DNA of 64,000 nucleotides from a phage (PZ445521.1); one strand, 5' to 3'. Positions 18,974-36,225 are shown, numbered from the stretch's first letter. The notes: generated by a model not told the origin, from the letters alone. A program made the numbers and translations.

Positions 18974-19891
18974 TCAAAATTCATTAATGCTATTAGTTAA
19001 TTTAGAAAGACCCGCTTTTACAAAATATGAATAAATTTTGCCACGCGGTGGTAATTTATATGAATTATAGTAATTCACAATGTTTGAAGCAATATTATCA
19101 GGAATATAATCAAAATCAATTAGAACTAAATTTTCTTTATATCGATTATATTCAGATTCAGTGAGAAGCACCTTAGCTTGCTCGCGGTCATTAGCAATAG
19201 CTTCAACAATAGAGGTTTTCATTGAAGGAGTTCGTTCACCTTCAACTCTGGTAAACCAAAAGTCAGATCGTACTTTAACTGAAGCAACGTTATCCTTTTT
19301 GTCACCTTTAAGGATTTTAGTCATACAGTCAATTTCAGCAGAACCGCTTTTAATTTTAACCCATTTCTTGTGCATCGGTGACCATTGCTTAACATTTGGG
19401 TATTTATGGAGTTGAGTAAAGTCACCATCCGATGAAATGATTAAAATCTTATGTCCTTCTAAAGAGAACTTTTTAACAAGAACAGCAATATGGTCATCTG
19501 CTTCATACTTATCAATATCCATAACAATGTATGGCATATAAGCTTTCAATTCATCTATAACTTTATGACTGGATTCAAAATAACCTTCCCAGTCCCAAGT
19601 AGATTCTTCTCGTGCTTTTCCACGGTTTTTCTTATAATAATAAGCAAAATCACGACGCCAATATCCAGATTTCGCGTTATCAATACACAGTACAATTTTA
19701 GTGTATCCAAGAGCTTTTGCTTTTTTGACATTAAACTTAATTGAGTTCAATATCAAATGACGAACCATTGATAAATTAATTTTTTCTTTATCTGGAAAGT
19801 TTACCAAAGCAGTTGAAAGCGCAATTTGACTAAAGTCAATTAAGCAGATTCCTTCTTTGTAATCTTTATCCAGCATCATTTCTAAATCCAT
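18974..19891 (-). CDS. rnh: RNase H (5'-3' exonuclease, FEN family)
   Basis: 305 aa from MDLEMMLDKDYKEGICLIDFSQIA..; matches T4 RNase H. Confidence 0.9.
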   Translation of the reverse strand: MDLEMMLDKDYKEGICLIDFSQIALSTALVNFPDKEKINLSMVRHLILNSIKFNVKKAKALGYTKIVLCIDNAKSGYWRRDFAYYYKKNRGKAREESTWDWEGYFESSHKVIDELKAYMPYIVMDIDKYEADDHIAVLVKKFSLEGHKILIISSDGDFTQLHKYPNVKQWSPMHKKWVKIKSGSAEIDCMTKILKGDKKDNVASVKVRSDFWFTRVEGERTPSMKTSIVEAIANDREQAKVLLTESEYNRYKENLVLIDFDYIPDNIASNIVNYYNSYKLPPRGKIYSYFVKAGLSKLTNSINEF

Positions 19892-19953
19892 ATGAACCTC
19901 GTTCAATTAGTGAGATTTCTATTATATACCATCCGAATCTTAAAGTAAACAAG

Positions 19954-19961
19954 TATAAATA
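19954..19961 (+). promoter_or_regulatory. late promoter TATAAATA for gene 34
   Basis: Exact TATAAATA 35 nt upstream of gene 34 ATG. Confidence 0.7.
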
Positions 19962-19995
19962 CTTATTATTGAAAACACAATAGGAGCCCGGGAGA

Positions 19996-22900
19996 ATGGC
20001 CGAGATTAAAAGAAAGTTCAGAGCAGAAGATGGTCTGGACGCAGGTGGCGATAAAATAATCAACGTAGCTTTAGCTGATCGTACCGTAGGAACTGACGGT
20101 GTTAACGTTGATTACTTAATTCAAGAAAACACAGTTCAACAATATGATCCAACTCGTGGATATTTAAAAGATTTTGTAATCATTTATGATAACCGCTTTT
20201 GGGCTGCTATAAATGATATTCCAAAACCAGCAGGAGCTTTTAATAGCGGACGCTGGAGAGCATTACGTACAGATGCTAACTGGATTACGGTTTCATCTGG
20301 TTCATATCAATTAAAATCTGGTGAAGCAATTTCGGTTAACACTGCAGCTGGAAATGACATTACGTTTACTTTACCATCTTCTCCAATTGATGGCGATACT
20401 ATCGTTCTCCAAGATATTGGAGGAAAACCTGGAGTTAACCAAGTTTTAATTGTAGCTCCAGTGCAAAGTATTGTAAACTTTAGAGGTGAACAGGTACGTT
20501 CAGTACTAATGACTCATCCAAAGTCACAGCTAGTTTTAATTTTTAGTAATCGTCTGTGGCAAATGTATGTTGCTGATTATAGTAGAGAAGCTGTAATTGT
20601 AACACCAGCGAATACTTATCAAGCGCAATCAAATGATTTTATCGTACGTAGATTTACTTCTGCTGCACCAATTAATGTTAAACTTCCAAGATTTGCTAAT
20701 CATGGCGATATTATTAATTTCGTTGATTTAGATAAACTGAATCCACTTTATCATACAATTGTTACTACATACGATGAAACGACTTCAGTACAAGAAGTTG
20801 GAACTCATTCCATTGAAGGCCGTACATCGATTGACGGTTTCTTGATGTTTGATGATAATGAGAAATTGTGGAGATTGTTTGACGGGGATAGTAAAGCACG
20901 TTTACGCATTATAACGACTAATTCTAATATTCGTCCAAACGAAGAAGTTATGGTATTTGGTGCGAATAACGGAACAACTCAAACAATTGAGCTTCAGCTT
21001 CCAACTAATATTTCTGTTGGTGATACTGTTAAAATTTCCATGAATTACATGAGAAAAGGACAAACAGTTAAAATCAAAGCTGCCGGTGAAGATAAAATTG
21101 CTTCTTCAGTTCAATTGCTGCAATTCCCAAAACGTTCAGAATATCCGCCTGAAACTAAATGGGTAACTGTTCAAGAATTAGTTTTTAACGGTGAAACTAA
21201 TTATGTTCCAGTTTTACAGCTTGCTTATATAGAAGATTCTGATGGAAAATACTGGGTTGTACAGCAAAACGTTCCAACTGTAGAAAGAGTAGACTCTTTA
21301 AATGATTCTACTAGAGCAAGATTAGGCGTAATTGCTTTAGCTACACAGGCTCAAGCTAACGTCGATTTAGAAAATTCTCCACAAAAAGAATTAGCAATTA
21401 CTCCAGAAACATTAGCTAACCGTACTGCTACAGAAACTCGTAGAGGTATCGCAAGAATAGCAACTACTGCTCAAGTGAATCAGAACACCACATTCTCTTT
21501 TGCAGATGACCTTATCATCACTCCTAAAAAGCTGAATGAAAGAACAGCTACTGAAACTCGCAGAGGTGTTGCTGAAATTGCTACGCAGCAAGAAACTAAT
21601 ACAGGAACCGATGATACTACAATCATCACTCCTAAAAAGCTTCAAGCTCGTCAAGGTTCTGAATCATTATCTGGTATTGTAACTTTTGTATCTACTGCAG
21701 GTGCTACTCCAGCTTCTAGCCGTGAATTAAATGGTACGAATGTTTATAATAAAAACACTAATAATTTAGTTGTTTCACCTAAAGCTTTGGATCAGTATAA
21801 AGCTACTCCAACACAGCAAGGTGCAGTAATTTTAGCAGTTGAAAGTGAAGTAATTGCTGGACAAAGTCAGGAAGGATGGGCAAATGCGGTTGTAACGCCA
21901 GAAACGTTACATAAAAAGACATCAACTGATGCAAGAATTGGTTTAATTGAAATTGCTACGCAAAGTGAAGTTAATACAGGAACTGATTATACTCGTGCAG
22001 TCACTCCTAAAACTTTAAATGACCGTAGAGCAACTGAAAGTTTAAGTGGTATAGCTGAAATTGCTACACAGGTTGAATTCGACGCAGGCGTCGACGATAC
22101 TCGTATCTCTACACCATTAAAAATTAAAACCAGATTTAATAGTACTGATCGTACTTCTGTTGTTGCTCTATCTGGATTAGTTGAATCAGGAACTCTCTGG
22201 GACCATTATACCCTTAATATTCTTGAAGCAAATGAGACACAGCGTGGTACACTTCGTGTAGCTACACAGGTCGAAGCTGCTGCAGGAACATTAGATAATG
22301 TTTTAATAACTCCTAAAAAGCTTTTAGGTACTAAATCTACCGAATCGCAAGAAGGTGTTATTAAAGTTGCAACTCAGTCTGAAACTGTAGCTGGAACGTC
22401 AGCAAATACTGCTGTATCTCCAAAAAATTTAAAATGGATTGCGCAGAGTGAACCAACTTGGGCAGCTACTACTGCGATAAGGGGCTTTGTTAAAACTTCA
22501 TCTGGTTCAATTACATTCGTTGGTAATGATACAGTCGGTTCTACCCAAGATTTAGAACTGTATGAGAAAAATAGCTATGCGGTATCACCATATGAATTAA
22601 ACCGTGTATTAGCAAATTATTTACCGTTAAAAGCAAAAGCTGCTGATACAAATTTATTGGATGGTCTAGATTCATCTCAGTTCATTCGTAGGGATATTGC
22701 ACAGACGGTTAATGGTTCACTAACCTTAACCCAACAAACGAATCTGAGTGCCCCTCTTGTATCATCTAGTACTGCTACGTTTGGTGGTTCAGTTTCGGCA
22801 AATAGTACATTAACTATTTCTAATACTGGAACTGCAACTCGTCTGATTTTTGAGAAAGGACCTCAAACTGGAACTAACCCAGCACAGACGATGACTATTA

Positions 22901-23865
22901 GAGTTTGGGGAAATCAGTTTGGCGGCGGTTCAGATACAACACGTTCTACTGTATTTGAAGTTGGTGATGAAACATCTAATCACTTTTATTCTCAACGTAA
23001 TAAAGCTGGTAATATTACGTTTAGCATTAATGGTACTGTGATGCCAATAAATGTTAATGCTTCGGGTTCTTTAAATGCGAATGGCGTTGCAACATTTGGT
23101 AGTTCAGTTACAGCCAATGGTGAATTCATCAGCAAGTCTGCAAATGCTTTTAGAGCAATAAACGGTGATTATGGGTTCTTTATTCGCAATGATGCTGCTA
23201 ACACCTATTTTATGCTTACTGCATCGGGTGATCAGACTGGCGGATTTAATGGATTACGTCCTTTGTCTATTAACAATGCATCTGGTCAAGTAACGATCGG
23301 TGAAAGCTTAATCATTGCTAAAGGTGCTACTATAAATTCAGGTGGTTTGACTGTTAACTCGAGAATTCGTTCTCAGGGTACTAAAACATCTGATTTATAT
23401 ACCCGTGCACCAACATCTGATACGGTAGGATTCTGGTCAATTGATATTAACGATTCAGCTACTTATAACCAGTTCCCGGGTTATTTTAAAATGGTTGAAA
23501 AAACTAATGAAGTGACTGGACTTCCGTACTTAGAACGTGGCGAAGAAGTTAAATCTCCTGGTACACTGACACAGTTTGGTAACACACTTGATTCGCTTTA
23601 CCAAGATTGGATTACTTATCCAACGACACCAGAAGCGCGTACCACTCGCTGGACACGTACATGGCAGAAAACCAAAAACTCTTGGTCAAGTTTTGTTCAG
23701 GTATTTGACGGAGGTAACCCTCCTCAACCATCTGATATCGGTGCTTTACCATCTGATAATGCTACAATGGGGAATCTTACTATTCGTGATTTCTTACGAA
23801 TTGGTAATGTTCGCATTATTCCTGACCCAGTGAATAAAACGGTTAAATTTGAATGGGTTGAATAA
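19996..23865 (+). CDS. 34: gp34 long tail fiber proximal subunit
   Basis: 1289-aa ORF MAEIKRKFRAEDGLDAGGDKIINVAL...; internal (I)TPKKL/RGxAxIAT repeats. Confidence 0.95.
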   Translation: MAEIKRKFRAEDGLDAGGDKIINVALADRTVGTDGVNVDYLIQENTVQQYDPTRGYLKDFVIIYDNRFWAAINDIPKPAGAFNSGRWRALRTDANWITVSSGSYQLKSGEAISVNTAAGNDITFTLPSSPIDGDTIVLQDIGGKPGVNQVLIVAPVQSIVNFRGEQVRSVLMTHPKSQLVLIFSNRLWQMYVADYSREAVIVTPANTYQAQSNDFIVRRFTSAAPINVKLPRFANHGDIINFVDLDKLNPLYHTIVTTYDETTSVQEVGTHSIEGRTSIDGFLMFDDNEKLWRLFDGDSKARLRIITTNSNIRPNEEVMVFGANNGTTQTIELQLPTNISVGDTVKISMNYMRKGQTVKIKAAGEDKIASSVQLLQFPKRSEYPPETKWVTVQELVFNGETNYVPVLQLAYIEDSDGKYWVVQQNVPTVERVDSLNDSTRARLGVIALATQAQANVDLENSPQKELAITPETLANRTATETRRGIARIATTAQVNQNTTFSFADDLIITPKKLNERTATETRRGVAEIATQQETNTGTDDTTIITPKKLQARQGSESLSGIVTFVSTAGATPASSRELNGTNVYNKNTNNLVVSPKALDQYKATPTQQGAVILAVESEVIAGQSQEGWANAVVTPETLHKKTSTDARIGLIEIATQSEVNTGTDYTRAVTPKTLNDRRATESLSGIAEIATQVEFDAGVDDTRISTPLKIKTRFNSTDRTSVVALSGLVESGTLWDHYTLNILEANETQRGTLRVATQVEAAAGTLDNVLITPKKLLGTKSTESQEGVIKVATQSETVAGTSANTAVSPKNLKWIAQSEPTWAATTAIRGFVKTSSGSITFVGNDTVGSTQDLELYEKNSYAVSPYELNRVLANYLPLKAKAADTNLLDGLDSSQFIRRDIAQTVNGSLTLTQQTNLSAPLVSSSTATFGGSVSANSTLTISNTGTATRLIFEKGPQTGTNPAQTMTIRVWGNQFGGGSDTTRSTVFEVGDETSNHFYSQRNKAGNITFSINGTVMPINVNASGSLNANGVATFGSSVTANGEFISKSANAFRAINGDYGFFIRNDAANTYFMLTASGDQTGGFNGLRPLSINNASGQVTIGESLIIAKGATINSGGLTVNSRIRSQGTKTSDLYTRAPTSDTVGFWSIDINDSATYNQFPGYFKMVEKTNEVTGLPYLERGEEVKSPGTLTQFGNTLDSLYQDWITYPTTPEARTTRWTRTWQKTKNSWSSFVQVFDGGNPPQPSDIGALPSDNATMGNLTIRDFLRIGNVRIIPDPVNKTVKFEWVE

Positions 23866-23873
23866 GAGGTATT

Positions 23874-24989
23874 ATGGAAAAATTTATGGCAGAGTTTGGA
23901 CAAGGATATGTCCAAACGCCATTTTTATCGGAAAGCAATTCAGTAAGATATAAAATAAGCATAGCGGGTTCTTGCCCGCTTTCTACAGCAGGACCATACG
24001 TTAAATTTCAGGATAATCCTGTAGGAAGTCAAACATTTAGCGCAGGCCTTCATTTAAGAGTTTTTGACCCTTCCACCGGAGCATTAGTTGATAGTAAATC
24101 ATATGCTTTTTCGACTTCAAATGATACTACATCAGCTGCCTTTGTTAGTTTCATGAATTCTTTGACGAATAATCGAATTGTTGCTATATTAACTAACGGA
24201 AAGGTTAATTTTCCTCCTGAAGTAGTATCTTGGTTAAGAATCGCCGGAACGTCTGCTTTTCCATCTGACTCTATATTGTCAAGATTCGACGTATCATATG
24301 CTGCTTTTTATACTTCTTCTAAAAGAGCTATTGCATTAGAGCATGTTAAACTGAGTAATAGAAAAAGCACAGATGATTATCAAACTATTTTAGATGTTGT
24401 ATTTGACAGTTTAGAAGACGTCGGAGCTACCGGGTTTCCAAGAAGAACGTATGAAAGCGTTGAGCAATTCATGTCAGCGGTTGGTGGAACTAATAACGAA
24501 ATTGCGCGTCTACCAACTTCAGCTGCTATAAGTAAACTCTCTGATTATAATTTAATTCCTGGTGACGTTCTTTATCTTAAAGCCCAGTTATATGCTGATG
24601 CCGATTTACTTGCTCTTGGAACAACAAATATATCTATCCGTTTTTATAATGCATCTAACGGATATATTTCCTCGACACAAGCTGAGTTTACTGGACAAGC
24701 TGGGTCTTGGGAATTAAAGGAAGATTATGTAGTTGTTCCAGAAAATGCAGTTGGATTTACGATATATGCACAAAGAACTGCTCAAGCGGGACAAGGCGGT
24801 ATGCGAAATTTAAGCTTTTCTGAAGTATCAAGAAATGGCGGAATTTCAAAACCCGCTGAATTTGGCGTCAACGGCATTCGTGTTAATTATATCTGTGAAT
24901 CTGCTTCACCTCCGGATATAATGGTACTTCCTACACAAGCATCGTCTAAAACTGGTAAAGTGTTTGGGCAAGAATTTAGAGAAGTATAA
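23874..24989 (+). CDS. 35: gp35 long tail fiber hinge connector
   Basis: 371-aa ORF immediately after 34. Confidence 0.9.
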   Translation: MEKFMAEFGQGYVQTPFLSESNSVRYKISIAGSCPLSTAGPYVKFQDNPVGSQTFSAGLHLRVFDPSTGALVDSKSYAFSTSNDTTSAAFVSFMNSLTNNRIVAILTNGKVNFPPEVVSWLRIAGTSAFPSDSILSRFDVSYAAFYTSSKRAIALEHVKLSNRKSTDDYQTILDVVFDSLEDVGATGFPRRTYESVEQFMSAVGGTNNEIARLPTSAAISKLSDYNLIPGDVLYLKAQLYADADLLALGTTNISIRFYNASNGYISSTQAEFTGQAGSWELKEDYVVVPENAVGFTIYAQRTAQAGQGGMRNLSFSEVSRNGGISKPAEFGVNGIRVNYICESASPPDIMVLPTQASSKTGKVFGQEFREV

Positions 24990-24994
24990 ATTGA

Positions 24995-25017
24995 GGGAGC
25001 CTTCGGGTTCCCTTTTT
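24995..25017 (+). terminator. rho-independent terminator after gene 35
   Basis: gggagcc-ttcg-ggttccc hairpin followed by TTTTT. Confidence 0.65.
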
Positions 25018-25020
25018 CTT

Positions 25021-25028
25021 TATAAATA
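25021..25028 (+). promoter_or_regulatory. late promoter TATAAATA for gene 36
   Basis: Exact TATAAATA 24 nt upstream of gene 36 ATG. Confidence 0.7.
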
Positions 25029-25051
25029 CTATTAAAATAAAGGGGCATACA

Positions 25052-25717
25052 ATGGCTGATTTAAAAGTAGGTTCAACAACTGGAGGCTCTGTCATTTGGC
25101 ATCAAGGAAATTTTCCATTGAATCCGGCCGGTGACGATGTACTCTATAAATCATTTAAAATATATTCAGAATATAACAAACCACAAGCTGCAGATAACGA
25201 TTTCGTTTCTAAAGCTAACGGTGGTACTTATGCATCAAAGGTAACATTTAATGCTGGTGTTCAAGTACCATATGCTATAAACAATACAAACCAAAGTGGT
25301 ATTTATCCTGGTAATGGAGATGCAGCTACTTTTGTTACAGCAAATATTGATATTGTTTCATGGTATGGCGTAGGATTTAAATCATCACAAGGATCTGCCG
25401 GTAGAACTGTAGTAATTAATACACGCAATGGTGATATTAGCACAAAAGGTGTTGTGTCGGCAGCTGGTCAAGTAAGAAGTGATGCGGCTGCTCCTATAGC
25501 AGCGAATGACCTTACTAGAAAGGACTATGTTGATGGAGCAATAAATACTGTTACAACAAATGCAAACTCTAGAGTGTTACGATCTGGTGACACTATGACG
25601 GGAAACTTAACCGCACCAAACTTTTTCTCGCAGAATCCTGCATCTCAACCTTCACATGTTCCACGATTTGACCAAATCGTAATTAAGGATTCTGTTCAAG
25701 ATTTCGGCTATTATTAA
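25052..25717 (+). CDS. 36: gp36 long tail fiber distal connector
   Basis: 221-aa ORF. Confidence 0.9.
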   Translation: MADLKVGSTTGGSVIWHQGNFPLNPAGDDVLYKSFKIYSEYNKPQAADNDFVSKANGGTYASKVTFNAGVQVPYAINNTNQSGIYPGNGDAATFVTANIDIVSWYGVGFKSSQGSAGRTVVINTRNGDISTKGVVSAAGQVRSDAAAPIAANDLTRKDYVDGAINTVTTNANSRVLRSGDTMTGNLTAPNFFSQNPASQPSHVPRFDQIVIKDSVQDFGYY

Positions 25718-25725
25718 GAGGACTT

Positions 25726-28700
25726 ATGGCTACTTTAAAACAAATACAATTTAAAAGAAGCAAAACCGCAGGTGCACGTCCTGCTGCTTCAGTATTAGCC
25801 GAAGGTGAATTGGCTATAAATTTAAAAGATAGAACAATTTTTACTAAAGACGATTCAGGAAATATCATTGACTTAAGCATTTCCGCTGGCGGTAATATCA
25901 GTGGTAATATCACTCAAACTGGTGATTATACACAGACTGGAAAATTTAATTTAATTGGCCCGCAGATTATAGCAAGTGGTGGATATATTGAGTTTAATTA
26001 TCGTACTACTGGAAGTGGGGCTTGGTCCGGTCAACACACTGCAAAGGCTCCAATTTTTGTAGATTTAAGCTCAGCTACTTCCACATCTGAATATAATCCT
26101 ATAATTAAACAGCGCTTTAAAGATGGAACTTTTTCATTAGGTACTTTAGTTTCTGAAGGTTCGTTGAAGATTCATTATATTGATGAAACTGGTCAATCTA
26201 AATATTGGACATTTGCGCGCTCAGGTAATTTTCAAGTTGATTCTGGTAATTTATTAGTATCTGGTGGGTATTTAGTCGCTCAGAGTAATATTGAAACAAG
26301 AACAGGTTCTTTGATTGGTCCATCTGTTGTAACTAAAAATATTTCATTTGATACGAAAGCGTTTGGACAATACGATTCGCAGTCATTAGTTCAATATGTT
26401 TATCCTGGAACTGGTGAAACAAACGGAATTAATTACCTTCGTAAATTCCGTGCAAAATCTGGTGGTACGATTTATCATGAATTAGCTTCTGCACAAACCG
26501 GAAAAAGTGATGAACTGTCTTGGTGGACCGGTAATACAGCCGTTAATAAACAAATGGGCCTTCGCAATGATGGGTCTTTAGTGTTGCGACGCTCACTCGC
26601 AATTGGTACAATTACAACAGATGAAAACATTAATAATTACGGCTCAACTGGAGCAATGGGTGAATGCTATATAGTCATTGGAGATGCCGCAACTGGTGTA
26701 TCATATAAAAGATCTGGTGTATATGATTTAGTTGCTAATGGTCTTTCTATCGCGTCTATTACTCCTGACAGTTTCCGTAGTACTCGTAAAGCATTATTTG
26801 GACGTTCAGAAGACCAAGGCGGAACATGGAATATGCCTGGAACGAACGCCGCGTTTTTATCGGTTCAAACACAGGCTGATGAAAACACTGCTGGAGACGG
26901 TCAAACCCATATTGGATATAACTCTGGCGGTAAAATGAACCACTATTTCCGTGGTAAAGGAAAAACTAATATTAATACTCAAGAAGGCATGGAAGTTAAC
27001 CCGGGTATTTTGAAATTGGTAACTGGCTCTAATAATGTAATGTTTTATGCTGATGGCGGTATTACATCTGTTAAGCAGCTTTCAATATATAACGGCATAT
27101 ATTTAGCAGCTAATAATTCTACTGCTGGGCTAACATTCGCTCCAACTACTACAATTGATGGCACTAAGCAAATTTTGTGGGAAGGCGGTACTCGTGCTGG
27201 TCAGAATAAAAGCTATGTAACTGTTAAAGCATGGGGTAATTCATTTAACGCATCTGGCGATCGTAATCGTGAAACGGTTTTTGAAGTAGCTGATGGACAA
27301 GGATATTATTTTTATTCACAGCGTGTGGCTCCAAGTGGCTCTGAAACTACTGGGCCTGTTGTAACCCAGTTCAATGGACAAGTTAATGCTAGAGGAAGTA
27401 TTATTACTGACGGAAGTTTTAAAGTTAATGGATTAAGCACTTTAGTCGGTAATGTTACCATGTCTAATGGTTTGTTTGTTCAAGGTGGTTCTTCTATTAC
27501 AGGCCAAGTAAAAATTGGTGGAACAGCAGATGCATTAAGAATTTGGAATGCTGAATACGGGGCTATTTTCCGTCGTTCTGAAGATAAGCTTTATATTATT
27601 CCAACTCCGCAGAATGCTGGTGAATCAGGTGGTATTTCTAATTTACGTCCGTTCTATATTACATTAAGTACTGGTAAAGTTTCCATGGATCATGATGTAG
27701 ATATCGGCGGCGGTAGATTTAAAGTAGAAGTGGCTGGAACTACGGCTGGTCAACGTATTATAGTTAATGCAGCGAGCGATGCTATTAGAATAAATGCTCC
27801 AACACAAGAGTCTTCTAACTTCATTCAAGGACGTAAGGCTGATGTGAATAAATGGTATTTGGGTATTGGCGATGGCGGCAACGTCGTTCGTATGCACAGC
27901 TACACATATTCACATGGTATTGCATTAAATTCTGATTCTGTCGATATTACTAAGCCTCTTAAAGTCGGAAACGCCCAACTAGGAACTGACGGTAATATTA
28001 CCAATGGTTCAGGAAACTTTGCCAACTTAAATACCACGTTAAATCGTAAAGTTAATTCTGGATTTATTACTTATGGAGCAACCTCTGGATGGTATAAGTT
28101 TGCAACTGTAACAATGCCACAATCCACTTCAACAGTCTTCTTTAAAATAGTTGGAGGTTCTGGATTTAATAGCGGATTATTCACACAATGTAATATTGCT
28201 GAAATTGTTTTACGTACTAGTAATGAAAGACCTGCTGACTTAAATGCTGCATTATACACAAGAACAATTGGAGCTGCATTTAAAGATATTGCAGTTAATA
28301 ACGTCTCTGGAGATACATATGACATTTATGTTTCTGCTGGAACATATTGTAATCAATTAGCTTGTGAGTGGTCATGTACCGAAAATGCTACTGTTAGTGT
28401 TATTGGTATTAACTCATCTACACAATCACCTGTAGATGCTCTTCCAGATACAGCAGTTAACGGTCAAGTTGCTAATGTTCTTAATAACTTGGTTGATCGC
28501 GGTAAAGTTAAGCGTTATGAAGCCGATTCTGAAATAGCTATTAATAGCCCAACCGGTATTCGTATCAGAAGCAATGGCGATAAAACTGGTTCTGTGGCTA
28601 CAATGTTACGAAATGATGGCGGTAGTTTTTATATTCTGTTTACAGATAAAAATGCCACCGATGGCGCAGCAACTGTTAATGGTGATTGGAATAGTAAACG

Positions 28701-29487
28701 TCCTTTCGCAATTAACTTAACAACCGGCGAAGTGATGATGAATAATGGCATAGCTGTTCGCAGCGCTGCTTTATTCTATAATAGCATAAACGTCAAAGAT
28801 AATGGTTCTATTAACTTTGATAAATCAGGTGCTAACCCGAGAAATATGAGAATATTTCATGCTGGCGATGCTTCTCGCGGTAACCGTATTGAAATTGCCG
28901 ATGAAACTAACTATATTGCTTACTTTGAAAAAACTCCAGGTGGAGCTAACCGCTTTGTAGTAAATAATGCTACTGTGGCTGGTGTTAATCAAATGAATTC
29001 ATTTGGTATTAACATCAATAACGCACTTGGTGGAAACAGTATAGCATTTGGTGATAATGACACTGGCATTAAACAATCCGGTGACGGACTTCTTGATATC
29101 ATTACTAACGCCGCACGACGAATGAGATTCCAGACGGGTGACACTTATTCTGACATGAATATAAATGCTCCAAACGTTTATATTCGTTCTGATATTCGTT
29201 TGAAATCTAATTTCAGACCTATTGAAAATGCTCTTGAAAAGGTTGAGCAGCTTGATGGTTTAATCTATGATAAAGCTGACTATATAGGTGGTGAAATTGT
29301 TCAGACTGAAGCAGGTGTTATTGCTCAGAAATTGAACGAAGTATTACCTGAAGCAGTTCGTGAAGTTGAAGATATTAAGGGTAATAAAATACTCACTATT
29401 TCTTCTCAATCCCAGATTGCTCTTCTAGTTGAAGCTGTGAAAACACTTTCTGCTCGTGTAAAAGAACTTGAATCTAAACTTATGTAA
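25726..29487 (+). CDS. 37: gp37 long tail fiber distal subunit (T2-type, 1253 aa)
   Basis: ORF MATLKQIQFKRSKTAGARPAASVLAEGELAINLKD...; followed by separate gp38 adhesin. Confidence 0.9.
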   Translation: MATLKQIQFKRSKTAGARPAASVLAEGELAINLKDRTIFTKDDSGNIIDLSISAGGNISGNITQTGDYTQTGKFNLIGPQIIASGGYIEFNYRTTGSGAWSGQHTAKAPIFVDLSSATSTSEYNPIIKQRFKDGTFSLGTLVSEGSLKIHYIDETGQSKYWTFARSGNFQVDSGNLLVSGGYLVAQSNIETRTGSLIGPSVVTKNISFDTKAFGQYDSQSLVQYVYPGTGETNGINYLRKFRAKSGGTIYHELASAQTGKSDELSWWTGNTAVNKQMGLRNDGSLVLRRSLAIGTITTDENINNYGSTGAMGECYIVIGDAATGVSYKRSGVYDLVANGLSIASITPDSFRSTRKALFGRSEDQGGTWNMPGTNAAFLSVQTQADENTAGDGQTHIGYNSGGKMNHYFRGKGKTNINTQEGMEVNPGILKLVTGSNNVMFYADGGITSVKQLSIYNGIYLAANNSTAGLTFAPTTTIDGTKQILWEGGTRAGQNKSYVTVKAWGNSFNASGDRNRETVFEVADGQGYYFYSQRVAPSGSETTGPVVTQFNGQVNARGSIITDGSFKVNGLSTLVGNVTMSNGLFVQGGSSITGQVKIGGTADALRIWNAEYGAIFRRSEDKLYIIPTPQNAGESGGISNLRPFYITLSTGKVSMDHDVDIGGGRFKVEVAGTTAGQRIIVNAASDAIRINAPTQESSNFIQGRKADVNKWYLGIGDGGNVVRMHSYTYSHGIALNSDSVDITKPLKVGNAQLGTDGNITNGSGNFANLNTTLNRKVNSGFITYGATSGWYKFATVTMPQSTSTVFFKIVGGSGFNSGLFTQCNIAEIVLRTSNERPADLNAALYTRTIGAAFKDIAVNNVSGDTYDIYVSAGTYCNQLACEWSCTENATVSVIGINSSTQSPVDALPDTAVNGQVANVLNNLVDRGKVKRYEADSEIAINSPTGIRIRSNGDKTGSVATMLRNDGGSFYILFTDKNATDGAATVNGDWNSKRPFAINLTTGEVMMNNGIAVRSAALFYNSINVKDNGSINFDKSGANPRNMRIFHAGDASRGNRIEIADETNYIAYFEKTPGGANRFVVNNATVAGVNQMNSFGININNALGGNSIAFGDNDTGIKQSGDGLLDIITNAARRMRFQTGDTYSDMNINAPNVYIRSDIRLKSNFRPIENALEKVEQLDGLIYDKADYIGGEIVQTEAGVIAQKLNEVLPEAVREVEDIKGNKILTISSQSQIALLVEAVKTLSARVKELESKLM

Positions 29488-29488
29488 A

Positions 29489-29517
29489 AGAGGGCTTCGG
29501 CCCTCTAAGGATTTTTT
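29489..29517 (+). promoter_or_regulatory. UUCG stem-loop between 37 and 38 overlapping gene 38 RBS region
   Basis: agagggc-ttcg-gccctct hairpin then aaggatttttt; ATG of 38 at 29519. Confidence 0.5.
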
Positions 29518-29518
29518 A

Positions 29519-30304
29519 ATGGCAATTGTAGGTGTTCCTGGCTGGATTGGTGAATCTGCCGTGAATGAAACTGGACAACGTTGGATGGATGCTGCAATGA
29601 GAGCAGTCCGTGTTTCAGTTCCCGGTTGGATGAGCTCAATGGCCGGACAATCTAAAGAAGTATATTATAGCATTGGTGCTAGTAATTCTTATAATAAAGA
29701 TACATTAATAAACTGGATAAAAGCACAAGGGTCCACGCCTGTTGTTATTACTATTACAGGAAATATTGTTTCTCAATCTACTGGTGTTCCATGCTTAGAT
29801 TTTCCTAGCTCATTAACTAATGCATACGTGACACTTAATATCAATTCAGGCGTGCATGTTTGGGGCCGTGGCGGGAATGGCGGAAATAACTCTGCAGGTG
29901 GAGCAGGAGGAACTGCAATAAATAATGGAATTGGAACTAGATTGCGTATTAACAACAATGGTGTTATCGCAGGAGGCGGTGGCGGCGGTGGCGGCGGATA
30001 TTATTCTCCTTTTTCACAAATGAAATTGACTTTTGGCGGTGGCGGCGGTCGTCCATTTGGTGCTGCTGGCGGGTCTGCTAATATGGAACAGGGCGCTACT
30101 GCTGGTACTATTTCTGCACCTGGTAAAGGGTCTGTCAATGGTATCTATAATGGCGGGAATGGCGGTGATGCTGGTGCCGCAGGTGGTAAATGTAATATTC
30201 GTGGGCAAGGATCAGAATATAACGGCGGTGCGGCTGGTAAAGCTGTTACTGGTAATGCTCCAACTTGGACTAAGGTTGGTACAATATATGGTTCAAGAGT
30301 ATAA
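29519..30304 (+). CDS. 38: gp38 tail fiber adhesin with glycine-rich motifs (T2/T6 type)
   Basis: 261 aa from MAIVGVPGWIGESAVNETGQRW.. with GGGGGGGGGYY and GGGGGRPFGAAGG glycine-rich blocks; track ORF has 17-codon upstream extension. Confidence 0.85.
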   Translation: MAIVGVPGWIGESAVNETGQRWMDAAMRAVRVSVPGWMSSMAGQSKEVYYSIGASNSYNKDTLINWIKAQGSTPVVITITGNIVSQSTGVPCLDFPSSLTNAYVTLNINSGVHVWGRGGNGGNNSAGGAGGTAINNGIGTRLRINNNGVIAGGGGGGGGGYYSPFSQMKLTFGGGGGRPFGAAGGSANMEQGATAGTISAPGKGSVNGIYNGGNGGDAGAAGGKCNIRGQGSEYNGGAAGKAVTGNAPTWTKVGTIYGSRV

Positions 30305-30336
30305 TTTTTGAATAAATATCCTTAAAAGGAGGGTCT

Positions 30337-30993
30337 ATGGCAGCACCTAGAATATCATTTTCGCCCTCTGATATTCTATTTGGTGTTCTAGATCGCTTGT
30401 TCAAAGATAACGCTACCGGGAAAGTTCTTGCTTCCCGGGTAGCTGTCGTAATTCTTTTATTTATGATGGCGATTGTTTGGTATAGGGGAGATAGTTTCTT
30501 TGAGTACTATAAGCAATCAAAGTATGAAACATACAGTGAAATTATTGAAAAGGAAAGAAATGCACGCTTTGAATCTGTCGCCCTGGAACAACTCCAGATA
30601 GTTCATATATCATCTGAGGCAGACTTTAGTGCGGTGTATTCTTTCCGCCCTAAAAACTTAAACTATTTTGTTGATATTATAGCATATGAAGGAAAATTAC
30701 CTTCAACAATAAGTGAAAAATCACTTGGAGGATATCCTGTTGACAAAACTATGGATGAATATGCAGTCCATTTAAATGGACGTCATTATTATTCTGACTC
30801 AAAATTTGCTTTTTTACCAACTAAAAAGCCTACTCCCGAAATAAACTACATGTACAGTTGTCCATATTTTAATTTGGATAATATCTATGCTGGAACGATA
30901 ACCATGTACTGGTATAGAAATGATCATATAAGTAATGACCGCCTTGAATCAATATGTGCTCAGGCGGCCAGAATATTAGGAAGGGCTAAATAA
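30337..30993 (+). CDS. t: holin T
   Basis: 218-aa ORF with single N-proximal TM (VAVVILLFMMAIVWY) and large C-terminal domain. Confidence 0.9.
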   Translation: MAAPRISFSPSDILFGVLDRLFKDNATGKVLASRVAVVILLFMMAIVWYRGDSFFEYYKQSKYETYSEIIEKERNARFESVALEQLQIVHISSEADFSAVYSFRPKNLNYFVDIIAYEGKLPSTISEKSLGGYPVDKTMDEYAVHLNGRHYYSDSKFAFLPTKKPTPEINYMYSCPYFNLDNIYAGTITMYWYRNDHISNDRLESICAQAARILGRAK

Positions 30994-31266
30994 TTATTTG
31001 TTCGTATACATCTCTAGATATCGATATACACCCTCAAAACCCTCGTTGAATTCGTCGATGAGGGTTTTCTTATCTTCTTGAGTTAATTCAGAAACAATTT
31101 TACGGAATGAATTCTGATTTAACTTTCTACCTTCATGCGTTACTCCAATCTCATTCAGAAATGCAATAAAATTAGCACGATTCTCAACAATATCTTCTCT
31201 GGAAAATTTAATTAAAATAGACGCAACAGTAATAATTTCACGAACTGTATCAATGTTTTTATTCAT
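30994..31266 (-). CDS. asiA: AsiA anti-sigma70 factor
   Basis: 90-aa ORF MNKNIDTVREIITVASILIKFSREDIVENRANFIAFLNEIGVTHEGRKL... matches T4 AsiA. Confidence 0.95.
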   Translation of the reverse strand: MNKNIDTVREIITVASILIKFSREDIVENRANFIAFLNEIGVTHEGRKLNQNSFRKIVSELTQEDKKTLIDEFNEGFEGVYRYLEMYTNK

Positions 31267-31278
31267 TAACTATACCAC

Positions 31279-31431
31279 TCAATTAGTTGACTTTGTTATA
31301 ATATCATCAGACGCTTGATTTGTAAACTGGTCTGTGTTATTTTCTTCAAAAATTTTTTCTACGAATTCTTTGAACGACTCACGTTCCTGAGCTACATTAT
31401 GCTCGATTACCTTTTCAAGATTATGACTCAT
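31279..31431 (-). CDS. hypothetical small protein (50 aa), not in ORF track
   Basis: ATG overlapping arn stop (ATGA); MSHNLEKVIEHNVAQERESFKEFVEKIFEENNTDQFTNQASDDIITKSTN. Confidence 0.45.
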   Translation of the reverse strand: MSHNLEKVIEHNVAQERESFKEFVEKIFEENNTDQFTNQASDDIITKSTN

Positions 31432-31706
31432 TCGAAATAATCTTCAATTTCATAATCATGGACATAAATCATTATAGTTTTTAATACATCATCAATACTT
31501 TTTCCTGGAGCTGGAATTACGTAAAAATACCCTGCTTTTGAGAGGTCTTTATAAGTTCCAATCAAGAAATCATTATTCTCAAGATGTAGTTCTTCAACTA
31601 ATTCATTAACAATTGAGTGGTATAAATTTGGTAGAAACTTATATAGCTTTTCTAGAATATCAATTTTGATTGTATATTGAACCACAGACTGAGAATCAAT
31701 AATCAT
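31428..31706 (-). CDS. arn: Arn anti-restriction protein (McrBC inhibitor)
   Basis: 92-aa acidic ORF adjacent to asiA as in T4. Confidence 0.8.
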   Translation of the reverse strand: MIIDSQSVVQYTIKIDILEKLYKFLPNLYHSIVNELVEELHLENNDFLIGTYKDLSKAGYFYVIPAPGKSIDDVLKTIMIYVHDYEIEDYFE

Positions 31707-31789
31707 AGACCTTCCCCTTATGTTTCTGTTTGCGATTAGATTCTTTAAACGCTTTCTTCTTATCCTTATGAACAGAAGCTTTATTGAAA

Positions 31790-32008
31790 TTATGTTTTGC
31801 GACTAAATTGTTCATAGTGCTGAATTACCTCTCTCAAACATTTGCATGTGAATGAAAACTTTTTAGCTACACCACATTCAAATATATGTTCTCTTAAATC
31901 GTGTGTATCCGTATATCCCATCTCAACAATAAAATGCCGTATTAGATTTTTATCTTTATCATTGAGATAATTAAAATAATCAGATTTTGAATTAATTTCC
32001 CTGGCCAA
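31790..32008 (-). CDS. hypothetical protein (arn-motA cluster)
   Basis: ORF track. Confidence 0.45.
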   Translation of the reverse strand: MAREINSKSDYFNYLNDKDKNLIRHFIVEMGYTDTHDLREHIFECGVAKKFSFTCKCLREVIQHYEQFSRKT

Positions 32009-32288
32009 ATTGAATCACCTTCAGTTGACGTTTTAATTCTTTTATCATTTCTTCGTTCATCGCAATATAAAGATCGCGTAAAGCAGGTTTTAGCATGTCA
32101 TTTATTATAGAACTAAATGGACATACATAATCTTTTCCTACGAGCTTTTTGGTGAATTCCATATCACAGAACTTAAATCCCGGCTCATTGGTATAAATTC
32201 CCCAATTAGTTGACATCATTTTATTGGCATATTCTAGTGCCTGGATTTGATTCATAATTCCATCAATTTGAAACTTTTTAATATTCAT
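31992..32288 (-). CDS. hypothetical protein (arn-motA cluster)
   Basis: ORF track. Confidence 0.5.
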   Translation of the reverse strand: MNIKKFQIDGIMNQIQALEYANKMMSTNWGIYTNEPGFKFCDMEFTKKLVGKDYVCPFSSIINDMLKPALRDLYIAMNEEMIKELKRQLKVIQFGQGN

Positions 32289-32749
32289 TAGTAAAGGTCC
32301 TCAGAGTAAAGTTCTTTTTCACTACCACCACGTTCAATACGTACTTGTCCAGCGTAAGTTGCAATAATCATTGCTTCTTCGCGAGTCCAATAATTACTAT
32401 ATTGGTCAATAAATCCTTGGTCATCATCACAAACTTGCTGAGTAACTAATTGGGGTTTAACTACATCTAAAACTGCTGCCATATCTTTAGAATAATGACG
32501 AGCACCTGGAATAATAAGAGTTCGTCCATCTTTTAATTTAAAACGGTTGGCTGCACAGACAATTCGTCGTTGATACTTTTGATTTTCATCCCAGTACGCA
32601 GTCTGCCAACAAATTTCAGGAACTTCTTTCAGAATATCTTCTTCTGTGCATTTATAACCATGTGCTTTAAACTTTTGAACAAGACTTTCTGGAGTTTCAC
32701 GAGATAAAGGAACATTCAGCATTTTTAAACGATTAATAAATGGGTTCAT
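32288..32749 (-). CDS. hypothetical protein (arn-motA cluster)
   Basis: ORF track, 153 aa. Confidence 0.5.
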
Positions 32750-33075
32750 TTAAACCATCCTTTAATACGTTGCCACAAAGTTTTCTGCTGAGCTTTGTTA
32801 ACGCCAATTGAGCGAATAACCGGTTGAGATTCCTGGAATTCTTTATAATCGGCAAGGTAAATTTCGTAAGCTGCATCTGTAAAGGAACTTATCGCTGCCA
32901 TGAAATTATTGCGAATACCTACTGGAGCATCTTTACTTTCACGAATAATCATGTATTTACCAGTCTTAATCTTTACAATAGTTCCAAGATAAGCTCCATG
33001 ATACCAGATGTCCCACCCCTCTTGAGTGGGTTCTGCGCAACGACGAAGTTCATTGACAATTTCTAACTTGTTCAT
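32746..33075 (-). CDS. hypothetical protein (arn-motA cluster)
   Basis: ORF track. Confidence 0.5.
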
Positions 33076-33085
33076 TATTTATTCC

Positions 33086-33721
33086 TCACAGTTCAGATGC
33101 TACAGTGATTACAGCTTCAATGTTTTCTGCCGAGCGTTTAATGTCAAGATACACATTACCGTTTTTAGCGATTTTACATGACATTCCGATGTCAGTAAAT
33201 TTCTGAATATGATGTTCCATCATTTTGTATCCAAAAATTCGCATATTTCCATTGTTGTTAATTTCAAAATTACGAATTCCGTGGGTGCGTTTTTCTAAAA
33301 TAGCGAGATAGTTACTGCGGTAAGTTTCAACCTTTTTAAGAACAAATCCATTTTCATCTAAAAGTTTTAACATGAGGTCTTTATCTTCTTCCATATCAGA
33401 AGTAATCTCGCGAGCTTTACGAGTTGCTCGTTTTTTCAGTAGTTCCGGAGCATTTTCCTGTGCGTATAAAGTTGCTGCGTTTGAAATAATATCTTGCGCT
33501 TCGCCTGTGATGATTAATCCATCACCTGATTTCTCTACCAGGCCTTTTTTGATCAATACCCCAATATTACTATTAACTACTGCGTTACCTAAATCTGGAT
33601 GCACCTCACGAACTTCTGCAGCTGTAATGAAATCTTTCTTAGCAATAGTAATTAAAATCGCAGCAGTTTTTTCATTCAGAACATCGTTAGAAGCTTTGAT
33701 GATGTAAGTTACTTTAGACAT
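33086..33721 (-). CDS. motA: MotA middle-transcription activator
   Basis: 211-aa ORF MSKVTYIIKASNDVLNEKTAAILITIAKKDFITAAEVREV... matches T4 MotA. Confidence 0.9.
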   Translation of the reverse strand: MSKVTYIIKASNDVLNEKTAAILITIAKKDFITAAEVREVHPDLGNAVVNSNIGVLIKKGLVEKSGDGLIITGEAQDIISNAATLYAQENAPELLKKRATRKAREITSDMEEDKDLMLKLLDENGFVLKKVETYRSNYLAILEKRTHGIRNFEINNNGNMRIFGYKMMEHHIQKFTDIGMSCKIAKNGNVYLDIKRSAENIEAVITVASEL

Positions 33722-33762
33722 TTTCTAATCTCCGTAATTCTGTATCAGTAGTTGATAGTTGT

Positions 33763-33792
33763 ATAGTACCACAGTATGCTTTGGTTGTAAAC
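33763..33792 (-). promoter_or_regulatory. T4-type early promoter upstream of motA
   Basis: Minus strand GTTTAC-N18-TACTAT; shares the gatagttgtatagtaccaca cassette core with 16026.. and 37408.. Confidence 0.55.
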
Positions 33793-33816
33793 CGTTTTGT
33801 GAAAAAAATTTTAAAA

Positions 33817-33843
33817 TAAAAAAGGGAGAGCCTCGGCTCTCCC
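33817..33843 (-). terminator. stem-loop terminator after small ORF downstream of gene 52
   Basis: gggagagcc-tc-ggctctccc hairpin with flanking A-run on plus strand. Confidence 0.55.
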
Positions 33844-33848
33844 TAAAA

Positions 33849-33998
33849 TTACTGCATGACTGTGATAACTGTCATGATAACACGTTGAATGCCGAACGCA
33901 AGAAGACCTCCTGCTACGGCTGGAACAACACCTACCCCCGCTAGTAAAATGCCGCCAGATACTAATGCTGCGCTTGTAATACCTATAAATGGACTCAT
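33849..33998 (-). CDS. small membrane protein (49 aa), not in ORF track
   Basis: ATGA overlap with gene 52 stop; RBS GAGGAAA; MSPFIGITSAALVSGGILLAGVGVVPAVAGGLLAFGIQRVIMTVITVMQ. Confidence 0.5.
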   Translation of the reverse strand: MSPFIGITSAALVSGGILLAGVGVVPAVAGGLLAFGIQRVIMTVITVMQ

Positions 33999-35323
33999 TT
34001 GATTTCCTCTAAATCTTTAGTGTATTCTGTAACTACATCAGTAGTTTTCCAATATTCGTTTTCTTCTTTCTTAGCTTTAGCTTCTTCAGCAAGTTTCTTT
34101 GCTTCGTCGGAAGTCATATGAAAAATATTCATTCCGACTAGTTTATCAACATAAGAAGAATACATATCAATTTTAGAAAGTTCTTCGGTCAGTTCTTTGC
34201 GAGTTTTACCCTGTACAACGATTTCACCTGAAATTACTTTCTTAATGAAATGTGCCTTGGCAAAGGCTAAACGAAATGCTGATTCAGTTTCTTTGATTTT
34301 GTTATCAATTCGTTTTTGGACATAAGTTTTACGAACTTCAACGAAGTCTTTGATTAAATCAACTACGTTATCGTAAACTTGTAGCTTTCCTTTCTCATTA
34401 ATAACGGTAATATTTTGGGAACGACGCTCAATCAACCCGAAGTCTTTCATAATTTTCGCGTGACGTTCTTCTTCGTTATCGCTCAAAGCGTATTCTTTGC
34501 GGAATTTAACTTTAAAGCCAAAACCATGCTCACCACAAGCATCATCCCATGTAATGAAGCCTTTATCTTCAAGTGGGTCTAAGATTTTACTCACATAAGT
34601 TTCACGATCATACTTATACGGAATCTCAGTGATGTGCATTTGAGTTCGTGAAGTAAACTTATATGTTCCACGAATTTCATATTGTCCATCAATTTCAACG
34701 ACTTCACCACGAAATTCTGGGAATTCTACCTTCGGTTTAGTTACTTTCTTTCCTTGAAGAGCTTGTAGTACAGCTTTCTTGACAGAAGAAACACTATGAG
34801 GAAGAATGTAAGTTGCATAACCAGTTGCAATACCGGAAACGCCATTAAGAAGAACAGTAGGAATAATAGGCAAATAGAAAGCAGGCGGAATGTGTTCTTT
34901 ATCTTGATGTACCGGAGCATACTCAGTATCTTTATATACACTATAGAAATTTTTACTTACACGAGCAAAAATATAACGACTTGCTGCTGCTTTTTGGACA
35001 GTACGAGAACCAAAGTTTCCTTGACCATCTAACAGAGGAAAGTTATTATTCCAAGTGTTAGCCATCAAAGCACCTGCGTCTTGCGCAGAGTTTTCACCAT
35101 GATGATATCCAAGGTCCGCTACACCACCTGCAATAGAAGCGAGTTTGTGAAACTTATCTTTATTTCCTCGTGCCAAATCAAGAGCTCGAGCAATAACAAA
35201 TCGTTGAACTGGCTTAAATCCATCAATCATATTTGGAATAGCACGATTTTCAACCGTGTACATAGCATAAGCCAATGCTTCATTATCAATGATACTTTTT
35301 AAATCGCGATTATTCAGTTGCAT
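33995..35323 (-). CDS. 52: gp52 DNA topoisomerase II medium subunit
   Basis: 442-aa ORF MQLNNRDLKSIIDNEALAYAMYTVENRAIPNMIDGFKPVQRF.. (GyrA-like). Confidence 0.9.
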   Translation of the reverse strand: MQLNNRDLKSIIDNEALAYAMYTVENRAIPNMIDGFKPVQRFVIARALDLARGNKDKFHKLASIAGGVADLGYHHGENSAQDAGALMANTWNNNFPLLDGQGNFGSRTVQKAAASRYIFARVSKNFYSVYKDTEYAPVHQDKEHIPPAFYLPIIPTVLLNGVSGIATGYATYILPHSVSSVKKAVLQALQGKKVTKPKVEFPEFRGEVVEIDGQYEIRGTYKFTSRTQMHITEIPYKYDRETYVSKILDPLEDKGFITWDDACGEHGFGFKVKFRKEYALSDNEEERHAKIMKDFGLIERRSQNITVINEKGKLQVYDNVVDLIKDFVEVRKTYVQKRIDNKIKETESAFRLAFAKAHFIKKVISGEIVVQGKTRKELTEELSKIDMYSSYVDKLVGMNIFHMTSDEAKKLAEEAKAKKEENEYWKTTDVVTEYTKDLEEIK

Positions 35324-35327
35324 AAAT

Positions 35328-35468
35328 TTACCATACTAGTGAATGTAGTGCCATAATAACATCAGAAATGAAAAGCACGACTTGAATTAATCCGAACATT
35401 ACTCCATAATATAGTGCTACTAATAAAGTAGCAAGGGCTAATGAATAGCCCAAGATTTTCTTAATCAT
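35328..35468 (-). CDS. small hydrophobic protein (46 aa), not in ORF track
   Basis: ATG overlapping ac stop; MIKKILGYSLALATLLVALYYGVMFGLIQVVLFISDVIMALHSLVW; stop 4 nt before gene 52 ATG. Confidence 0.5.
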   Translation of the reverse strand: MIKKILGYSLALATLLVALYYGVMFGLIQVVLFISDVIMALHSLVW

Positions 35469-35619
35469 TAGTAGATAACAACACAAATGTTAAATATGCA
35501 CACATACCCTGAGCTAAAGCTTGCGAAAACACACTGCTGGCATCAATACAGATAGTTAAAACACATGCTACTATCCAACAAATAAATGAAATAACTCCTA
35601 ATAATTTTGCAATATTCAT
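35461..35619 (-). CDS. ac: putative Ac (acridine sensitivity) membrane protein, 52 codons
   Basis: MNIAKLLGVISFICWIVACVLTICIDASSVFSQALAQGMCAYLTFVLLSTND; located between stp and 52 as in T4; RBS GAGGAAAA. Confidence 0.55.
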   Translation of the reverse strand: MNIAKLLGVISFICWIVACVLTICIDASSVFSQALAQGMCAYLTFVLLSTND

Positions 35620-35626
35620 ATTTTCC

Positions 35627-35707
35627 TCACTGGAGTCCGAAGACGCCTTTGGTTTTAAGATTGTTACGATAGAACTGCATCACGTGTTCGTTGTGGAAAT
35701 TACTCAT
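35627..35707 (-). CDS. stp: Stp peptide (26 aa), modulator of host EcoprrI restriction / PrrC anticodon nuclease
   Basis: [26 protein letters not shown] matches T4 Stp as recalled (one difference); ATG overlaps ndd stop. Confidence 0.75.
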
Positions 35708-36165
35708 TAATATGCCTGTAAAACAAATTTAAAGTTATCAGCCAACATACGGTTCATTTCTTCAAGTGTTTGATACTCAGAATGATGATTACGAGTAAAC
35801 GCCAAAGCTAACTGACCTTTACCAAATCCCGTCGTCAGAGGTTTCATCTTAGAAGCAGGCAGATAAAACACTGTGTATGGAACATTGTTATTTGCAATAG
35901 TACGCGCAAGTTGAGACCGGCGTTGACGAATATGACTTAAAACCGCACTGAATCCTTGCTTAGAACGCTGATTACCTACATAAAATCGTGCTGACACACA
36001 TGGATTACTAAATGGACGACCATCTAATTTACTTACTAAAAAGTAAAATCCAGGTTTAGATAAAATGTCTTTATGCGGAGTTCCCAAAAACCATTCACCG
36101 CCCTTGATTGTGCCAATAACAGTAGCGCCTGCATTATTCAGATCAGTAACAGTCATGTATTTCAT
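35707..36165 (-). CDS. ndd: Ndd nucleoid disruption protein
   Basis: 152 codons from [26 protein letters not shown].. with GAGGAAA RBS; track ORF extends 16 codons upstream. Confidence 0.85.
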
Positions 36166-36225
36166 ATTAATTTCCTCTAAATTATTTTCTACTCCAAGGC
36201 CGCATGAATACACACGGCCATTAAA

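Follow-up and report, generated by a model that had tools for sequence, protein, structure and literature searches.

A T2/T6/S16-type g37-g38 receptor-recognition module with T6-like gp38 variable segments, probably directed at Tsx, in a Tequatrovirus

We analysed the distal tail-fibre genes g37 and g38 at positions 25726-30304 of a 64,000-nucleotide stretch of phage DNA (PZ445521.1; the whole stretch is called the window below), and read the pair, with a probability of about 0.93, as the receptor-recognising end of a long tail fibre of T2/T6/S16 type, from a Tequatrovirus that uses the outer-membrane protein Tsx as its receptor. The receptor of this gp38 allele is Escherichia coli Tsx, as shown on the phages JK38 and Bas39, whose gp38 is identical, and the protein itself is a recombinant mosaic in which an attachment and beta-helix part of K3/T2 type is joined to a T6-type cassette holding hypervariable segments (HVS) 2 to 4. 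An earlier note on this DNA had described a gp37 of 1253 amino acids (aa) followed by a gp38 of 261 aa, and the listing of open reading frames (ORFs) bears out both genes:

25726..29487, plus strand: g37, long tail fibre distal subunit precursor (ORF of 1253 aa plus stop; DNA 100% identical to g37 as annotated in vB_Eco_QOTSP and JK38)
29519..30304, plus strand: g38, predicted monomeric tail-fibre tip adhesin (261 aa plus stop; Pfam GP38 and Gp38_N; PDB 6F45_D and 9V85)

The gp38 adhesin and its variable segments

Membership of gp38 in the T2/T6/S16-type adhesin family holds over the full length of the protein and above curated thresholds. The Pfam model GP38 (PF05268) matches aa 47-261 over its entire profile (1-218 of 218; E 3.5e-72, 243.2 bits against a cut-off of 25), a score at which the feature is not due to chance, and Gp38_N (PF21721) covers aa 1-42 (E 8.2e-18, 64.6 bits). 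In a PDB sequence search, aa 8-259 match the adhesin of phage S16 in the crystal structure 6F45_D (E 2.7e-49), the two gp38 proteins aligning end to end at ~46-50% identity, and a further match is found to 9V85, a chain in which green fluorescent protein (GFP) is fused to gp38 (E 1e-33). From this identity and the 9V85 match, a polyglycine-II sandwich fold and a single gp38 monomer per gp37 trimer (3:1) are predicted. All three polyglycine blocks to which the earlier note had drawn attention are found, GGGGGGGGGYY starting at aa 152, GGGGGRPFGAAGG at 173 and NGGNGGDAGAAGG at 211, in a region (aa 116-240) that is 37% glycine, and the note's placing of the module with T2 agrees both with these matches and with a gp37 that lacks the T4 tip and ends in a Peptidase_S74 domain.

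For the mapping of conserved and variable parts, gp38 was aligned with seven references of known receptor, namely Bas39, Bas43 and T6 (Tsx), Bas45 (OmpA), T2 (FadL), Bas38 (OmpF) and S16 (OmpC). The alignment proposed earlier was thus carried out for T2 and T6 and widened to BASEL phages of known receptor, which take the place of K3, Ox2 and M1; the K3 record X04747 holds g37 and only the start of g38. Segments follow the scheme of five glycine-rich motifs (GRMs) and four HVS of Trojet et al. 2011 (PMC3157838), with exact boundaries that we infer:

29519..29653, plus strand: gp38 N-terminal attachment domain of K3/T2 subtype, aa 1-45, with W9, W22 and W37
29864..30247, plus strand: gp38 specificity domain, aa 116-243, from conserved versus variable columns of the eight-sequence alignment
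GRM1: gp38 aa 116-122
HVS1: gp38 aa 123-151
GRM2: gp38 aa 152-160
HVS2: gp38 aa 161-172
GRM3: gp38 aa 173-185
HVS3: gp38 aa 186-210
GRM4: gp38 aa 211-223
HVS4: gp38 aa 224-235
GRM5: gp38 aa 236-243
29969..30238, plus strand: T6-like (Tsx-type) cassette in g38, gene nt 451-720, spanning HVS2 to HVS4, from DNA identity in 45-nt bins

The five GRM blocks are conserved, with 6-13 of their 7-13 residues identical in every reference, whereas identity in the four variable HVS ranges from 0 to 83%. Among the gp38 proteins of T6, T2, Bas45, Bas38 and S16, neither the GRM columns nor W9, W22 and W37 vary; in S16 gp38, three tryptophan "prongs" are inserted into pockets of the gp37 trimer (PMC6851490). 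Over the attachment domain, identity amounts to 45/45 with Bas45, 44/45 with T2 and 30/45 with T6. The Tsx adhesin gp38 of T6 has the same length (261 aa) and the same GRM/HVS layout, and the published location of T6 residues 167 and 168 in HVS2 and 208 in HVS3 (Trojet et al. 2011, PMC3157838) fits our placement of the segments.

Compared segment by segment, gp38 carries the T6-like HVS set that marks the Tsx-specific subtype. Identity to T6 is 19/29 in HVS1, 10/12 in HVS2, 19/25 in HVS3 and 10/12 in HVS4, so that HVS2-4 are 76-83% identical to T6 as against 0-62% for the OmpA, FadL, OmpF and OmpC references (HVS2-4 in turn: 3/12, 18/29 and 7/12 for Bas45; 0/12, 5/25 and 2/15 for T2; 0/12, 8/25 and 1/12 for S16). 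The gp38 group of T2 and K3/Bas45 (FadL/OmpF; OmpA) has in common with the window the attachment domain (44-45/45), the final 18 residues and the subtype of gp37 tip and chaperone, but differs in its HVS2-4 loops and its receptors, and the HVS loops of S16, which binds Salmonella OmpC, are unrelated to those found here. The HVS of Bas43, also a Tsx phage, form another set (6/12, 13/25 and 3/14 over HVS2-4), which implies that more than one Tsx subtype exists; according to Trojet 2011 (PMC3157838), nearly all Tsx adhesins have the same four HVS. Ten positions in HVS2-4 differ between gp38 and T6, and Q167, M168 and G208 are in the T6 state, these being the positions at which changes in the T6-like adhesin of phage PST add recognition of OmpA and of Yersinia (Trojet 2011, PMC3157838).

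The mosaic is equally apparent in the DNA. In 45-nt bins, g38 is 73-89% identical to T6 within nt 451-720 and 31-73% identical upstream, while identity to Bas45 and Bas43 reaches 80-100% in nt 1-270 and 96-100% in nt 721-786 and drops to 53-78% inside the cassette; nt 271-315 are 93% identical to Bas43. The portions of K3/T2 subtype are the attachment domain, the beta-helix part and the 18 residues at the C-terminus. Since Bas45 is the nearest relative overall and yet the HVS are T6-like, comparison of whole gp38 proteins alone would mislead, and a receptor call made from whole-protein identity, which would suggest OmpA (Bas45, 84-87%), was rejected on the per-segment and DNA-bin analyses.

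That Tsx is the receptor of this allele is already known because both JK38 and Bas39 have been tested by experiment: the BASEL supplementary table lists Tsx as primary receptor of Bas39 and the deep core of lipopolysaccharide (LPS) as its terminal receptor, and JK38 was assigned Tsx and 3-deoxy-D-manno-octulosonic acid (Kdo) by random barcode transposon sequencing (RB-TnSeq) in a 2026 preprint reporting screens on 255 coliphages (bioRxiv 10.64898/2026.04.02.716166). The same preprint shows that exchange of gp38 from HVS2 onwards is enough to change which porin is recognised by T6-like phages that are closely related. In the protein analysed here, the HVS loops would likewise form the interface with Tsx. 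The earlier view of gp38 as the determinant of host range thus stands for the primary receptor, on the JK38 and Bas39 data, but is too broad as worded, since gp12, the LPS core, the O-antigen and host defence also shape host range. Its variable segments had also been called worth comparing; the mapping places HVS2-4 with T6, a comparison that the literature has effectively made already.

The gp37 shaft and its predicted C-terminal chaperone

The precursor encoded by g37 divides into two parts:

25726..29187, plus strand: predicted mature gp37 shaft, aa 1-1154, ending in ...NINAPNVYIR, the predicted gp38 docking surface (alignment of C-termini)
29188..29484, plus strand: gp37 intramolecular chaperone (IMC) domain, aa 1155-1253 (99 aa), beginning S1155-D-I-R-L-K1160 (Peptidase_S74)

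Alignment with T4 gp37 is good over aa 1-657 only (59% identity), two further weak local matches reaching T4 gp37 aa 849, and Pfam places Gp34_trimer at aa 508-645 and gp37_trimer at aa 686-759. At the C-terminal end, the model Peptidase_S74 (PF13884) covers aa 1155-1212 over its whole profile (1-58 of 58; E 1.6e-14, 54.4 bits against a cut-off of 22), and the last ~155 residues (aa 1097-1251) match the S16 gp37 tip construct 6F45_A in the PDB sequence search. The motif NVYIR^SDIRLK aligns with DLNVS^SDRRIKK of S16, and its SDIRLK part also with the corresponding motifs of T6, T2 and Bas38. Autocleavage of the last 113 residues at S^S has been published for S16 gp37 (PMC7917993), and autoproteolytic release of the chaperone is stated for T2 and T6 gp37 (Trojet 2011, PMC3157838); by analogy, the gp37 of the window is predicted to be cut between R1154 and S1155, releasing 99 residues. 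The S16 gp37(3)-gp38 tip (PDB 6F45) belongs to the same family, with an IMC-processed gp37 trimer, one gp38, three tryptophan prongs, a beta-helix and a polyglycine-II sandwich, all features that are predicted for the window, and it differs in its cleavage motif (S^SDRRIK versus R^SDIRLK) and in a gp37 of only 749 aa. T6 gp37, at 994 aa, departs from the gp37 of the window at its tip (...GSFSDVYIR) and in the greater length of its IMC tail.

The ten residues that precede the cleavage motif (NINAPNVYIR) are shared with T2, Bas39, Bas43, Bas45 and teqsoen, in which the gp38 N-terminal domain is of the same type, while the pre-cleavage tip differs in T6, Bas38 and S16, a pattern that fits the lock-and-key match described between gp37 tips and gp38 N-terminal domains (Trojet 2011, PMC3157838). 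Around this motif, gp37 aa ~1110-1253 (window 29051-29487) are 72-86% identical to Bas39, T2, Bas45, teqsoen and Bas43, which are near-identical to one another; an example of the difference in tip and IMC is DIITNAARRMRFQTGDTYSDM versus DIYANSVQVFRFQNGDLYSYK. As tip and IMC vary and the gp38 attachment domain nonetheless stays the same, the docking surface appears to tolerate variation just upstream of NINAPNVYIR.

Further upstream, gp37 is strongly mosaic, its nearest relative in 50-aa bins switching repeatedly among Bas39, T2, Bas43, Bas45 and teqsoen. The Bas39 protein, which has 1260 aa, is 94-100% identical across most of its length and departs mainly at aa 651-750 (30-46% identity) and over the last ~150 aa (74-84%); none of the references fetched exceeds 46% identity over aa 651-750 (window 27676-27975). 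Both the Pfam gp37_trimer match and a weak similarity to two tail-fibre chains of phage T7 (4A0T and 4A0U) overlap this stretch. Different gp37 shafts accompany the identical gp38 in different phages. Shaft mosaicism is said to have been described as a general property of T-even g37 by Tetart et al. in 1998. The plasticity of the T-even distal fibre locus has long been established (Trojet 2011, PMC3157838).

Taken with the literature, these observations are compatible with a mechanism in which gp37 would be made as a 1253-aa precursor whose C-terminal 99-aa Peptidase_S74 chaperone drives trimerisation of the beta-helical shaft and then, by homology with processed relatives, cleaves itself off between R1154 and S1155 (NVYIR^SDIRLK). 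Cleavage would bare a hydrophobic trimer tip on which one gp38 monomer may dock through W9, W22 and W37 of its N-terminal domain, as in the S16 structure. The C-terminal half of gp38 would fold as a polyglycine-II sandwich of GRMs, presenting the HVS as distal receptor-contacting loops, and the nucleoside channel Tsx would be bound before irreversible binding of gp12 to the LPS inner core. IMC autocleavage, the polyglycine-II fold and the role of gp38 as a virion tip protein setting porin specificity are carried over here, as presumed properties, from the literature on identical or homologous proteins.

Alternative readings of the module

The earlier note had named, as the arrangement opposed to its own proposal, that of T4, in which gp38 would be an assembly chaperone only and the gp37 C-terminus would itself be the receptor-binding tip; we give this reading, which would also leave gp38 absent from the virion, next to no credence. 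The window does have the gene order g37-g38-t of T4, shares with T4 the locus and the proximal two-thirds of the fibre, and is 59% identical to T4 over the N-terminal 657 aa of gp37. Yet the T4 gp38, a protein of 183 aa that is not part of the virion, is unrelated to the one encoded here (BLASTP E = 19, 5/23 identities), which passes the Pfam adhesin models and matches 6F45_D, and T4 gp37 forms its own His-rich needle tip without an IMC, whereas the gp37 of the window has no HxH motif (8 in T4), shows nothing significant beyond T4 aa 849 and ends in the S74 chaperone domain. A PDB sequence search with gp37 gave no match to the T4 gp37 tip chain, and phages of the same genus that are of T4 type, such as Bas40, combine a 183-aa gp38 with a gp37 ending in ...NIAFNYIVRLA. 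The T4-type arrangement was therefore rejected on BLASTP against T4 gp38 and gp37, the HxH motif count and the PDB sequence search.

Within the T2/T6/S16-type reading, it is unlikely that the adhesin binds OmpA or another porin instead of Tsx, or a second receptor besides it. Such a shift could be imagined because the nearest non-Tsx reference by whole protein is the OmpA phage Bas45 and type-1 OmpA adhesins lie near Tsx adhesins in phylogeny (Lutz et al.), and because few changes can be enough: three substitutions in the T6-like adhesin of PST add OmpA and Yersinia recognition (PMC3157838), one HVS3 substitution turns OmpF into OmpW specificity in RB68 (bioRxiv 10.64898/2026.04.02.716166), and the gp38 of the window departs from T6 at its 10 HVS2-4 positions. 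The likeness to Bas45 nevertheless resides in the attachment, beta-helix and C-terminal parts and is only 3/12, 18/29 and 7/12 in the HVS2-4 loops, the PST-type positions 167, 168 and 208 hold the residues of T6, and two independent studies scored phages with an identical gp38 as Tsx-dependent. We consider it more improbable still that the mosaic distal shaft of gp37 (aa ~650-1100) adds a binding activity of its own, for instance to LPS or another surface carbohydrate, such that gp38 would not be the sole determinant of the primary receptor. The strong mosaicism of gp37, the divergence of aa 651-750 and the pairing of one gp38 with several shafts would fit such a role; against it, Pfam and the PDB sequence search detect no carbohydrate-binding or enzymatic domain in gp37, swapping gp38 and nothing else converts porin specificity completely among T6-like phages that are close relatives (bioRxiv 10.64898/2026.04.02.716166), and a mosaic shaft has long been known as a general feature of T-even g37.

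No observation contradicts the assignment of the module to a Tsx-directed, T2/T6/S16-type fibre, which has the following limits. The receptor data come from JK38 and Bas39 and not from the source isolate of the window; whole-protein gp38 identity, if taken alone, favours Bas45 (84-87%) over T6 (65%); the g37 of JK38 is split by a duplication in its GenBank record; and gp37 cleavage, gp38 stoichiometry and the polyglycine-II fold are extrapolated from a homologue, S16, at the identity given above. Beyond that assignment, it is a doubtful though conceivable extension that the 10 HVS2-4 substitutions relative to T6 might alter the footprint of the loops on Tsx or the tolerance of Tsx alleles, or might confer a latent second receptor as in PST, and that the occurrence of this gp38 on several gp37 shafts might reflect a recently spreading, portable "Tsx cassette".

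Genomic setting and significance

The module lies in a canonical T-even tail-fibre locus, as judged from ORFs, Pfam and annotated relatives, in which the gene series g34-g35-g36-g37-g38-t is succeeded by asiA, encoded on the minus strand; gp34, gp35 and gp36 are thus encoded upstream and the holin T downstream. The hinge protein gp35 (window 23874-24989) has at aa 58-113 a match to the Pfam family ILEI/FAM3 (PF15711; E 1.4e-8, 35.6 bits against a cut-off of 27), which is otherwise known from animal secreted proteins.

The ORF listing also offers a longer frame for g38 (29468..30304, plus strand), which codes for 278 aa from a TTG codon and contains ATG 29519 in frame. We place the start at ATG 29519 and reject the TTG start because an AAGGA Shine-Dalgarno sequence (29507-29511) stands 8 nt 5' of this ATG, all homologues begin at the same N-terminus (MAIVGVPGW) and the Gp38_N alignment starts at residue 1. 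Between the two genes lies a further element:

29489..29506, plus strand: g37-g38 intercistronic hairpin with a 7-bp stem (AGAGGGC/GCCCTCT) and a UUCG tetraloop, followed by the AAGGA Shine-Dalgarno sequence and a T6 run (six T)

The predicted free energy of this terminator-like hairpin is -13.4 kcal/mol. Hairpins with differing stem sequences are found at the same place in T4, T6, S16, T2 and Bas38/39/40/43/45, from which it follows that pairing has been kept through compensatory changes, and the K3 record X04747 labels the element a potential terminator. A scan of the region for sigma-70 promoters gave no excess over shuffled sequences (23 vs 20.7 +/- 5.1), such a scan being uninformative for T4 late genes.

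The whole 4579-bp g37-g38 region is 100% identical, in one piece, to that of Escherichia phage vB_Eco_QOTSP (OY720014), and 100% identical to that of Shigella phage JK38 (MK962755; genus Tequatrovirus), the latter identity running across window 19726-36304 (16.6 kb) with a single exception. The exception lies in the JK38 record, where the 730 bp of window 27701-28430 are duplicated exactly and in tandem, and as 730 is not a multiple of 3, JK38 g37 is annotated as two coding sequences, while the window and QOTSP lack the duplication. JK38 being a viable Tsx-dependent phage, the duplication probably arose as an artefact of assembly. At least 15 GenBank phage records contain this gp38 protein at 100% identity, among them JK38, QOTSP, Bas39 FriedrichMiescher (BASEL, MZ501066), teqhal, teqsoen, slur02/04/11/13, JK1 and JLBYU22. 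Across these records the same protein is labelled "distal long tail fiber assembly catalyst", "tail assembly protein", "hypothetical protein", "receptor-recognizing protein" or "tail fiber adhesin", the last being the annotation in JK38 and QOTSP. The T4-chaperone label ("assembly catalyst") on this protein is an annotation carry-over error.

The module is thus ordinary and already known, its exact sequence being deposited and annotated and its receptor published; the architecture and structure of the family, recombination at the GRMs and the receptor of this allele have all been reported before. The value of the present analysis is one of annotation, in that the phage can be labelled with confidence as a user of Tsx, as primary receptor, through its gp38 tip adhesin. 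This assignment is useful for the design of phage cocktails, where single-step resistance through loss of tsx is to be expected, and the mosaic map illustrates more generally that whole-protein gp38 identity can point to the wrong receptor (OmpA, from Bas45), whereas the HVS loops give the right one.

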